Shown here: positions 1 through 45,001 of the stretch, in pieces
How positions within the stretch are numbered: the stretch's first letter is position 1
Layout: each line of letters starts with the position of its first letter
Origin: a virus
Lineage: Duplodnaviria > Heunggongvirae > Uroviricota > Caudoviricetes
Length of the DNA stretch: 45,001 nt
Direction: 5' to 3' (one strand)
Virus record (IMG/VR): IMGVR_UViG_2671180676_000003
The notes under the pieces: model-generated
Told to the model about the DNA's origin: nothing
Seen by the model: the letters and a program-made list of their open reading frames with translations, nothing else
Databases searched by the model: none
Program-made: the position numbers and the translations under genes

Positions 1-191
1 ACAATGCCTGTGTGGAAAGCTTCTTTCATTCGCTGAAGGTGGAATGTATCCACGGGGAACGCTTTAGCAGCCGGGAAATAATGCGGGCAACGGTGTTTAA
101 TTATATCGAGTGTGATTACAATCGCTGGCGTCGTCACAGTGCCTGTGGCGGTCTCAGCCCGGAACAATTTGAAAACCATAATCTCGCTTAG
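1..191 (+). CDS. IS3-family transposase OrfB (integrase core), C-terminal fragment; 5' end off-window
   Basis: Open frame from the window edge to TAG at 189-191; C-terminal sequence typical of IS3-group transposases. Confidence 0.8.
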
Positions 192-221
192 GGCCGTGTC
201 CACATTACGTGGGTAGGATCA
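1..221 (+). mobile_element. IS3-family insertion sequence, right end only (element continues upstream of the window), including terminal inverted repeat ending ...GGGTAGGATCA
   Basis: Bases 3-191 translate to ...[57 protein letters not shown], which I recognise as the conserved C-terminus of IS3-group OrfB transposases. It is followed by an IS3-like terminal repeat (GGCCGTGTCCACATTACGTGGGTAGGATCA, 192-221). Recognition is from memory. Confidence 0.85.
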
Positions 222-713
222 CCCAGCGTCCTGACAGAATCCTCGAAAAACAACGAGCATACTGCCACCTGGGTTGATGTTTACTTCTACCTGACCCAGA
301 TTGACGTCAGGCTCGACAAACGCTACGCGGCCACCAGACAGAATAATCGTCTCATTCGCACACTCTGTTGCACGCTCATACCACTTTGTATCTAGGGATT
401 GAGGAATTAGCATCACTGTTGTAACTCCGCGAGCCTGCTCACGTATAGCCGCATCAATCCAGGGGGAGATTTTGGAGTAGGGTGGATTGAGGAAGGCAAT
501 TGTACCTGGCTGTCCCCATTCAGATTTCAAAGCATCACGCTCAACGCCTATGAAATTAGGCAGCTTTGCATTGTCCTTGTTGCAGGCAACGTCAACATCA
601 AATGTCACTCCAAGATAACGTTGAATGGCAGAAAACAGCCAGTCAGGTGTTCTCCAGAGGTCACGAAGAGAGTTGTCGCGCTTTCGCTGTTTGATTTTTT
701 CGGCTGCAATCAT
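219..713 (-). CDS. Phage-type DNA N6-adenine methyltransferase, 3' end truncated by the IS3-family insertion
   Basis: 164 aa with NPPY catalytic motif (FLNPPYSK). The stop codon TGA (rc of 219-221) is supplied by the last bases of the IS terminal repeat, so the native C-terminus is missing. Confidence 0.65.
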   Translation of the reverse strand: MIAAEKIKQRKRDNSLRDLWRTPDWLFSAIQRYLGVTFDVDVACNKDNAKLPNFIGVERDALKSEWGQPGTIAFLNPPYSKISPWIDAAIREQARGVTTVMLIPQSLDTKWYERATECANETIILSGGRVAFVEPDVNLGQVEVNINPGGSMLVVFRGFCQDAG

Positions 714-780
714 CTTCTTTCTCGATAGGTAAGTAAATACCTATTTTTGCATTTGATTTTATGTCTGGCAATCAAATAAA

Positions 781-21843: not shown

Positions 21844-22781
21844 TACCTTTCGAATGGAAGAACAAACACTTCAAGGTCTTCAAGGAACGAACGGAAATTC
21901 AGCTCGTAGCACAGTTGCTCGAATGCTTTCACGTCACGATTGCCTTTGATTGTTTCGATTTCGGTAGGCGGAAACTTCGTCTCAATCAGGTTCATTAGCG
22001 TGATGTTTCTCTTGAACGCTTCGAGCATTCGACAGCCTGTTTTCTCGTTGAAGGCATTCTTCGCTAGTTTGTTGAAGGCGGTCTTATGACGCCCTTTATT
22101 AACCACGATTGAGCCGTCGTTGATGCCGCGTACCATCGTTGCGACACTTCCCCATTCATGCAGCAGCTCTTTCGCACCGCCAGCACCAATGCCACCAACA
22201 CCGCTAATGTTGTCCGAGTTATCGCCTTGTAATGCTTTTGCTTCCAAAAATGCGCGAGGCGTGGCGAATCCTGTCAGCTCCGCAAATTGCTCAAAATTAA
22301 CCTGCTTGTTTTTGGCGTCTTCACGCAGGCTTACCCAGCTTACGTTTTCGCGAACTAACTGAAGCCAGTCGCTATCGCCTGTTAACAGATAGATGTGTTC
22401 AACGGTTGGCTGCGGTGCCATGCGGGATACCAGCAGCCCGGCCAGATCATCCGCTTCTGCATCTTTTGCAATGATTTGGTTAACACCAAGCGCGGTCATC
22501 ATTTTGAGGATGTATGGCTTCTGGATAGCAAAGCCTTCCTTCATCTTTTTCATATCAGGATCGTCGTCGCGATTTGCTTTGTAGTCCGGGTAAAAGTCGC
22601 GACGCTTGTCACTAAATCCATCCCAAAGAATCATAGGTCGGGCATGGAGGATGGAGGCATAACGACGGACGTTCTTAACAAAGCCGAAAGCAGCCTGTAC
22701 TTCCATTTCGCCGTTGTGCAATTTGTCAGATTGTTGGTGGTAATAACCCAGGCTATTGCCATCTACGAAGAGATAATTCAC
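21837..22781 (-). CDS. 5'-3' exonuclease / flap endonuclease (T4 RNase H and T5 D15 class)
   Basis: NYLFVDGNSLGYY N-terminal motif and helix-hairpin-helix GDNSDNISGVGGIGAGGAKEL. The track's GTG start at 22832 sits inside the upstream terminator hairpin, so I place the start at GTG 22781 with AAGGA upstream. Confidence 0.8.
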   Translation of the reverse strand: MNYLFVDGNSLGYYHQQSDKLHNGEMEVQAAFGFVKNVRRYASILHARPMILWDGFSDKRRDFYPDYKANRDDDPDMKKMKEGFAIQKPYILKMMTALGVNQIIAKDAEADDLAGLLVSRMAPQPTVEHIYLLTGDSDWLQLVRENVSWVSLREDAKNKQVNFEQFAELTGFATPRAFLEAKALQGDNSDNISGVGGIGAGGAKELLHEWGSVATMVRGINDGSIVVNKGRHKTAFNKLAKNAFNEKTGCRMLEAFKRNITLMNLIETKFPPTEIETIKGNRDVKAFEQLCYELNFRSFLEDLEVFVLPFERYC

Positions 22782-41371: not shown

Positions 41372-41838
41372 TGTTGTTTTGCCTCCATATGTTGATCGAT
41401 TTGCTCATGTGTTTCTTTTGTTGTTTCTTCAAGCAACGCCGCATACACGTCAGTGATCGCTGTTTGTGATGTGGCGCTCTTCTTAACCATGCTACTAATC
41501 GTTACACTGTCACGTTTTCGTTTTATAGTTCTGGCTTGTTTATTCCGTTCTTCAACCTCCTTAATGAGTGCGGTCATATCTTCGAAATACAGAGATTCTC
41601 CTTTACGAATCTCTTCAACCATCATTTTTAACGCCTTGCATTTGCCTGCTTTAATAGCGGTTGCGCACGACTGGAAAGAAGTTCGAGGAAGACGGTTTTC
41701 TTTGAAGGCAAGAATGGTGTGCTGGCAAACGGAATAGCTGCAATATGCCGACTCACCGTTTATCTTTACTTCCTCACAACGAAGTGAATAACCGTTATTT
41801 CCTGAAATAGAAGGGATTTTTGACAAATCAGCTTTCAC
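41368..41838 (-). CDS. Hypothetical protein
   Basis: 156 aa; its stop overlaps the ligase ATG as ATGA; promoter-like motif 20 nt upstream. Confidence 0.5.
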   Translation of the reverse strand: MKADLSKIPSISGNNGYSLRCEEVKINGESAYCSYSVCQHTILAFKENRLPRTSFQSCATAIKAGKCKALKMMVEEIRKGESLYFEDMTALIKEVEERNKQARTIKRKRDSVTISSMVKKSATSQTAITDVYAALLEETTKETHEQIDQHMEAKQQ

Positions 41839-41904
41839 AATTACCGCCAGAAATAATCTTGTGCTTACCTATCATTATTTGCGTAAAAACGACACACAGA
41901 GAGC

Positions 41905-42681
41905 TTACCAACTTCCCCAGCTAATCATCTTGCGCTGATCGCTTTCTAAGCGATAAGGGGCAAGAAGCTCTGTGACATGATTGGTGGCGTATGATTTAGC
42001 CTCTTGCTTAATCATCGGTAATTCGTTAGCAATCCTGACCATCTTCCCAGCAAATTCCGCCATTACGCCATCACAAGCCTTCCCCGCATCAACAACGATA
42101 TGCACAAGATCCAACTGGCTTTTGCACATATCCCAAAGAGACGCGTATTCACTCTCTCTGATTACATTTACGGCACTATTAGCCCCTTTATTAATCAAAA
42201 CTTCCAACAGATTTTTCGGGGTAACGAAATCTGCTTTCAGAGATAATGTCTTTTCACCACTTATCGAACGCAAGTACTCTTCGTAGTTATTCTTCATCAA
42301 ACCGCTGCTGCGCATTGCTAGAACTGCTTCTTGAATGGCCGCTTCAATAGTTTCGTCGTTTGAAAGACAAAAAACGGTATTTGTGTAGATCACTCTGCCA
42401 TCAAGCCATGCTCCAACCTGCACTTTAAGACTGAGCGGGTTTTCTTTGCTAATAAAAACAACTAATGCAGAACGCCGTGCACAAGAAGGTTCGCCCCATA
42501 CGTGTAACTCAACTTTCAGATAAGGCAACCCTGGTAGCGGGATCTCGTCCATACGAGCAGCGATATGATTCATTGCTGTATTGACGGCCTTTCCAATGAT
42601 GTCTAGTCGACTGCCCTCGCTGATTTCTAAACCTGTTTTATCAATGATGTCACAGGCCAATTTCTGAATTTCGTCTTTCAT
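41905..42681 (-). CDS. Hypothetical protein
   Basis: 258 aa ORF with the recurrent promoter-like motif about 40 nt upstream. Confidence 0.5.
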   Translation of the reverse strand: MKDEIQKLACDIIDKTGLEISEGSRLDIIGKAVNTAMNHIAARMDEIPLPGLPYLKVELHVWGEPSCARRSALVVFISKENPLSLKVQVGAWLDGRVIYTNTVFCLSNDETIEAAIQEAVLAMRSSGLMKNNYEEYLRSISGEKTLSLKADFVTPKNLLEVLINKGANSAVNVIRESEYASLWDMCKSQLDLVHIVVDAGKACDGVMAEFAGKMVRIANELPMIKQEAKSYATNHVTELLAPYRLESDQRKMISWGSW

Positions 42682-44599: not shown

Positions 44600-45001
44600 T
44601 GCTGCAATGCCTTTCACCTTGCTTAAGAGTTCAAGCTGTCGTGAATAAGGTTTTGCGCAATAGTAGGCTTTGATAATCTGCCCCGGTGTCGCATCGCCGG
44701 GGTCGAGTCCTTCCTCGCCCAAACACGCAACTTTGACATTAAGACCAATACTTGTGAGTCGCCTAGCTGCGGCCATAGTGTTGCGTATAGCTTGCTTTTC
44801 ACTATCCCACATCATGATCACATTACGTAATCCACGCGCCTTGAGCGTCAGGAACGCGCCCAGCTGATCTTCTGCATCCTGAGTGGTGTTGCCAGATAGA
44901 TGCATCCCGAACGTTCCTATTGGTTCCACGTAATCACGTAATGTTTCTTCGTCAAAAATAGCTCGTTTGACCCCCATAACATCGTAAGCGTCAACGGAGC
45001 A
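44591..45001 (-). CDS. Partial CDS (5' end off-window), possibly the TOPRIM-containing C-terminal part of a primase-like protein
   Basis: The frame stays open to the window edge upstream of the first Met; acidic motifs (MMWDSEKQ, GLDPGD) vaguely resemble TOPRIM. Weak. Confidence 0.3.
   Translation of the reverse strand, partial: CSVDAYDVMGVKRAIFDEETLRDYVEPIGTFGMHLSGNTTQDAEDQLGAFLTLKARGLRNVIMMWDSEKQAIRNTMAAARRLTSIGLNVKVACLGEEGLDPGDATPGQIIKAYYCAKPYSRQLELLSKVKGIAALV

Follow-up and report, generated by a model that had tools for sequence, protein, structure and literature searches.

An ISEc16 end very probably truncates the phage N6-adenine methyltransferase gene of an SSU5-group phage-plasmid

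In the 45,001-nucleotide stretch of the IMG/VR virus record IMGVR_UViG_2671180676_000003 (the whole of which is called the window here), a short adenine methyltransferase gene ends where an insertion sequence (IS) begins. A preliminary description had read this as a recent disruption of the gene by an IS3-family element. The locus therefore raises the question of whether the junction is genuine, in which element and by which event it arose, and whether the shortened enzyme can still act. The features around the junction are as follows:

1–221, plus strand: right end of ISEc16 (IS3 family), comprising positions 1024–1244 of the 1,244-bp element.
3–191, plus strand: last 62 codons and TAG stop (189–191) of the ISEc16 transposase (OrfB part), from the ORF list and Pfam.
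192–221, plus strand: right terminal inverted repeat of ISEc16, ending in ...GGGTAGGATCA with the family-typical CA, from comparison with the left end of a full copy.
219–221, minus strand: TGA stop of the methyltransferase, formed by the last three IS bases; the intact allele has CAC (His165) here.
222–224: CCC, the Gly164 codon, the first target bases beside the IS and presumably the right-hand copy of a 3-bp duplication.

Members of the IS3 family carry terminal inverted repeats of the form 5'-TG...CA-3' and a DDE transposase with an rve domain; their overlapping genes orfA and orfB are joined by programmed -1 frameshifting, and their full length is about 1.2–1.5 kb. The element at the start of the window was confirmed as a member of this family and specifically as ISEc16. 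Positions 1–221 matched ISEc16 copies in many plasmids of E. coli and E. marmotae at 221 of 221 bases (E = 9e-112), and these copies carry the annotation "IS3-like element ISEc16 family transposase". Comparison with a full copy (L006:778–2021) showed that the window starts inside the IS, with its first base at IS position 1024. The 62 C-terminal residues of the transposase, whose catalytic part lies outside the window, matched the integrase-core C-terminal domains rve_2 (3e-22) and rve_3 (7.9e-10) in Pfam, and the rve_2 match is shared with the plasmid copies. The end ...GGGTAGGATCA (211–221) matches the ISEc16 right terminal repeat exactly, the terminal CA included; the left end of the full copy is TGATCTTACCCACCAATAGTGGACAC. 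The insertion differs from the known ISEc16 insertions in its target site, at which none of the searched records carries the element, and in that only its right end lies inside the window.

The inner boundary of the IS was located from both sides. More than 160 phage-plasmid records, from plasmids of about 110 kb, begin to match exactly at base 222, and several of the plasmids are 100% identical over 222–2500. The other ISEc16 copies examined cease to be identical after the base that corresponds to 221 and have differing flanks beyond it. Thus, 221/222 is the true IS terminus. Alignment of the DNA to the intact methyltransferase allele (L001:3001) placed ISEc16 exactly between codon 164 (GGG, Gly164) and codon 165 (CAC, His165), so the reading frame meets the IS-terminal TGA at once. 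The preliminary description had stated that the terminal bases GGATCA (216–221) provide the stop codon and that the native 3' end of the gene was replaced by IS sequence. Both statements held, with TCA at 219–221 read as TGA on the minus strand and with 33 codons and the native stop displaced at the junction 221/222; the coordinates and content it gave were likewise correct. The immediate IS-derived stop carries no special meaning; needing only a placement between codons, it is expected for one third of insertions in the present orientation.

It was considered very probable that this is a real ISEc16 junction truncating the methyltransferase at codon 164. The best-supported history is that an ISEc16 copy transposed between codons 164 and 165 of the gene in an SSU5-group phage-plasmid close to pUTAK-6-1. 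A 3-bp target-site duplication is typical of the IS3 group, and on this general knowledge the CCC at 222–224 is the presumed right-hand copy of such a duplication. If the event was a simple insertion, the left junction should read 5'-...CTTGCTTATAGAGTGCCC/TGATCTTACCCACCAATAGTGG-3', with CCC duplicated and the ISEc16 left end, TGATCTTACCCACC, directly after it.

Judging from gene order and nucleotide identity, the element that received the IS is an SSU5-group phage-plasmid of E. coli, very close to pUTAK-6-1. Positions 222–44,984 aligned in one piece to pUTAK-6-1 (NZ_CP157149.1, L008) with 6 substitutions and 3 single-base indels (99.98% over 44.8 kb), and the phage region was 97–99% identical to the Escherichia phages CMS-2020a, Cyrano and PhiR41_1. 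Collinear gene content and an orthologue in phage SSU5 assign the element to the SSU5 group. The phage-plasmid host that had been supposed earlier is thereby specified, given the more than 160 plasmid matches and the collinearity with pUTAK-6-1. The three indels (window positions 22,167, 31,588 and 32,157) break ORFs in pUTAK-6-1 and not in the window: a 331-aa ORF is reduced to 225 aa and a 702-aa ORF is split into parts of 284, 205 and 244 aa in pUTAK-6-1, while both are intact in the window. The reference probably carries sequencing errors or pseudogenes at these indels. Since they break ORFs only in pUTAK-6-1, the sequence of the window is of good quality and the real divergence amounts to about 6 SNPs.

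The quality of the flank also bears on whether there is an IS in the gene at all. A chimeric join at a repeat, or an artefact of the contig end, could be suspected because the window starts inside one multicopy IS and ends in another, and because the junction was present in none of the public collections searched. However, the join lies exactly at the IS terminus, as transposition would make it, and repeat misjoins arise inside repeats and not at their last base; on the sequence, such a junction has the signature of transposition and not of repeat-induced misassembly. The flanking 44.8 kb, with ORFs intact where the reference has frameshifts, argue in the same direction, and an artefact of either kind is extremely improbable.

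The comparison with pUTAK-6-1 also dates the event. The methyltransferase gene is intact in pUTAK-6-1. Among 207 complete E. coli records with the locus, the insertion site was uninterrupted over 801 bp in 206, and the remaining record was cut at the site by its own start; an insertion hot spot was thus ruled out. A scan with the 45-nt junction found it in none of the GTDB genomes, IMG/VR or the JGI metagenomes, and a BLAST search found no PLSDB or complete E. coli genome record spanning it. Since a near-identical sibling has the intact gene and the junction was seen nowhere else, the insertion appears to be recent and private. The recent mobile-element disruption of the preliminary description is therefore upheld, with the intact sibling only 6 SNPs away.

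Two further records touch on the same region. In E. coli ST12468, the methyltransferase region is present with 100% identity on both the phage-plasmid and the chromosome (NZ_CP103694.1, 954271–955150), which suggests an integrated copy on the chromosome. The sibling phage-plasmid pRM9975-1 (NZ_CP028433.1) carries another IS3-family element, IS1203 (L002:5208–6421), just upstream of the 3'-5' exonuclease gene, which is annotated there as shorter (516 nt vs 558 nt); this is another IS strike in the same gene block.

The far end of the window likewise falls in an IS:

44,984–45,001, plus strand: terminus of an IS66-family element, GTAAGCGTCAACGGAGCA, recognised from the end of the relatives' matches at 44,984 and from the context of the 18-mer.

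All close relatives stop matching at 44,984. The 18-mer GTAAGCGTCAACGGAGCA was found in 66 IMG/VR contigs with variable, unrelated upstream flanks, and in all but two of them it is followed by a conserved interior; the annotation of a full copy, about 2.5 kb long, reads IS66-like ISEc43 family with TnpB. This terminus interrupts a hypothetical gene, a homologue of the pUTAK-6-1 CDS at 41464–42579; an IS66-family insertion would be expected to duplicate 8 bp of its target. Thus, two different IS ends, lying 221 and 18 bases inside the window, enclose the 44,763-bp half of the phage-plasmid that serves replication and nucleotide metabolism. Such an arrangement is equally compatible with a contig bounded by repeats, with two simple insertions and with an IS-bracketed fragment.

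The last of these corresponds to an IS-mediated rearrangement (adjacent deletion, inversion, cointegrate formation or IS–IS recombination) in place of a simple insertion. The sequence to the left of the IS would then not be the 3' end of the methyltransferase gene, and the 44.8-kb half would be a fragment held between ISEc16 and the IS66-family element. In line with this, both ends of the segment are IS termini close to the window edges, and the displaced 3' end of the gene was not found inside the 45-kb window; this says little, however, since the window covers 45 kb of an element of about 110 kb. A clean target-site duplication was present in none of the five other full ISEc16 copies (L006, L009, L010, L011 and L012). 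L006 and L009 have a common left flank and different right flanks, and sharing one flank only, they show that ISEc16 copies do recombine. The chromosomal copy of the region in strain ST12468 is also compatible with rearrangement. Against it stand the perfect collinearity of the segment with pUTAK-6-1 and the existence of SSU5-group phage-plasmids distinguished from one another by nothing but gained or lost insertion sequences, which have already been described (bioRxiv 10.1101/2025.09.12.675607, legend of Fig. S9; the main text of that preprint makes no mention of methyltransferases). Between the window and pUTAK-6-1, too, two IS ends and 6 SNPs are essentially the whole difference. Rearrangement is accordingly rated as rather unlikely.

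The effect of the insertion on the enzyme was then considered from the part of the gene that is left:

219–713, minus strand: ORF of the truncated phage N6-adenine methyltransferase, 164 of 197 native residues followed by TGA; the upstream region is unchanged.
477–488, minus strand: catalytic motif IV NPPY, residues 76–79, retained, from the translation.
743–771, minus strand: retained promoter-like site upstream of the gene, which matches the consensus only weakly; the intact plasmid has it as well.

From base 222 onward, the DNA is 100% identical to that of the intact alleles. The intact product WP_000559568.1 (197 aa; L001:2899–3492), encoded by pUTAK-6-1 and pMB3825A_2 and with an orthologue in Salmonella phage SSU5, is identical over residues 1–164. 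Its gene lies in the same neighbourhood, with genes for a 269-aa hypothetical protein, a 3'-5' exonuclease, DHFR, ThyA and NrdAB. The loss at the C-terminus, which the preliminary description had proposed to measure against an intact orthologue, is 33 aa (164 vs 197): in place of residues 165–197, which comprise a strand, a helix and a basic tail, the truncated allele has the IS-derived stop. The lost sequence is HSISKIPLDVMKSLGGYDPANVIRKKRPSKKAA, and with its stop the displaced end of the gene amounts to 102 nt. The region downstream is also separated from the gene; in pUTAK-6-1 and pMB3825A_2 it has a small gene of the WP_000121543.1 / WP_032203380.1 type and then rnhA. The transposase and methyltransferase genes are now convergent. 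Scans for promoters and terminators returned background-level matches only, and the promoter-like sites were no more numerous than in shuffled sequence.

The truncated protein is still recognised as a phage-type N6-adenine methyltransferase, as had been stated earlier. It scored 130.3 bits against PF05869 (Dam; cut-off 28.1) and 110.1 bits against TIGR01712 (phage_N6A_met; cut-off 97.05), and it shares with the small phage Dam-type methyltransferases of these families the NPPY motif and a Rossmann-like class I fold. GATC specificity is known for other PF05869/TIGR01712 members, outside the present clade. The motif agrees with the pattern (D/N)PP(Y/F/W); in alignment A1, N76, P77 and Y79 are invariant and P78 is present in at least 90% of the sequences. 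The survival of the N-terminal 164 aa with NPPY, claimed at the outset, is thus substantiated. Truncation reduces the coverage of the profiles from 160/169 to 150/169 positions (PF05869) and from 162/165 to 146/165 (TIGR01712), and the C-terminal strand and helix that follow the last core strand in a complete domain are absent from the truncated protein. The bit scores fall by only 1.5–4 bits in PF05869 and TIGR01712, so sequence conservation in the lost part is weak.

This small change in the profile scores leaves room for an insertion that is real and near-neutral, in which the 164-aa protein would be the whole catalytic core and would still methylate, the tail being an accessory, lineage-specific appendage. 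All invariant columns of alignment A1, like NPPY, fall within residues 1–164, and natural members of 154–160 aa exist that end just past the ...SMLVVF(H/R)G strand (P0088, P0090, P0107 and P0190), although some of these short members are on short contigs and may be incomplete. The tail, however, is kept by all orthologues, down to those of about 50% identity. In the alignment, the ones of full length, which belong to Escherichia, Salmonella, Cronobacter, Klebsiella, Xenorhabdus and Providencia, all measure 192–211 aa, and all have the tail motif I-P-L-x-V-M-K-x-L-G-G-Y followed by a basic end; the orthologue of phage SSU5 has 197 aa and 84.8% identity. The preliminary description had allowed that related intact methyltransferases might end at the same residue as the truncated one, and the orthologues show that this is not the case.

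Structure prediction and distant relatives also speak against a near-neutral loss. The AlphaFold model of the intact protein (mean pLDDT 83) contains a strand at 166–171 and a helix at 172–179, packed on the domain, and then a disordered basic tail; over residues 161–180 the block-mean pLDDT values are 88 and 93, so that the strand and helix are predicted with high confidence. The truncated protein, modelled from a single sequence without an alignment, reached a pLDDT of 41, a value that carries no information on its stability. A sequence search of the PDB with the methyltransferase gave no matches, and Foldseek against the PDB returned generic class I adenine methyltransferases only (M.TaqI, KsgA and CamA; TM about 0.44, a weak similarity). 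Among 1.84 billion representatives searched, 93 distant relatives with a single domain reached from the N-terminal region to the last core strand. An extension of at least 15 residues past that strand was present in 86 of them (92%; median 26), and six had at most 7 residues there, the length kept by the truncated allele. Near-neutrality is thus possible, though doubtful.

We consider it probable, on sequence and model grounds, that the truncated allele is null or hypomorphic. The protein would keep NPPY, the core sheet and the N-terminal part and would lose elements that the family preserves throughout, namely one strand, one helix and the basic tail, so inactivity or a strong loss of activity is the most likely outcome. 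The consequence would be the loss of the element's own adenine methylation, and in a dam+ E. coli host this loss would probably be tolerated in the plasmid state. We infer a possible role of the methyltransferase in restriction evasion or regulation; a search of the literature on PF05869, ISEc16 and phage Dam enzymes returned nothing specific to the present gene.

Independent frameshift alleles of the same methyltransferase recur in the databases (P0073, P0076, P0077, P0065, P0079 and P0027). In one example, a base is missing at or beside the GGGG run of GAATGGGGACAGCC, a short way upstream of NPPY; the P0077 allele was present on 44 contigs, the longest of 111 kb. Either real pseudogenes or homopolymer sequencing errors could account for these alleles. 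They recur in full-length phage-plasmids beside the IS allele, and it is conceivable that loss of the phage-plasmid's own methyltransferase is selected and not accidental. Alternatively, the IS-bracketed 44.8-kb replication module might be a domesticated plasmid derivative without virion genes. We regard both readings as very unlikely. Selected loss, if true, might be explained by escape from methylation-dependent restriction or by locking of the element in the plasmid state.

Each component (ISEc16, the methyltransferase and the SSU5-group phage-plasmid) is a catalogued one, and the case is an ordinary recent mutation with no departure from known biology. It matters little beyond annotation, where the gene deserves to be marked as a pseudogene or truncated allele disrupted by an IS and the element as an SSU5-group phage-plasmid that carries IS sequence. 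Set beside the near-isogenic pUTAK-6-1, this natural knock-out could reveal what the methyltransferase does, be it evasion of restriction during transfer or a part in induction. The pair of IS ends also recalls that, over the short term, SSU5-group elements change mainly through IS traffic.

A look-up of the exact 164-aa product returned three contigs (L003:8697, L004:1471 and L005:537) with partial genes at contig ends. They come from three assemblies and have different nucleotide alleles, and all stop at the same base (...GACGCTGGGC), which lies one base beyond the point of IS insertion. They were ruled out as IS junctions, since each ends in ...GCTGGGC with the base of the intact allele. 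Because partial products of other lengths exist (P0019, P0020 and P0028), the shared end base is ascribed mostly to selection by the exact-length look-up itself.
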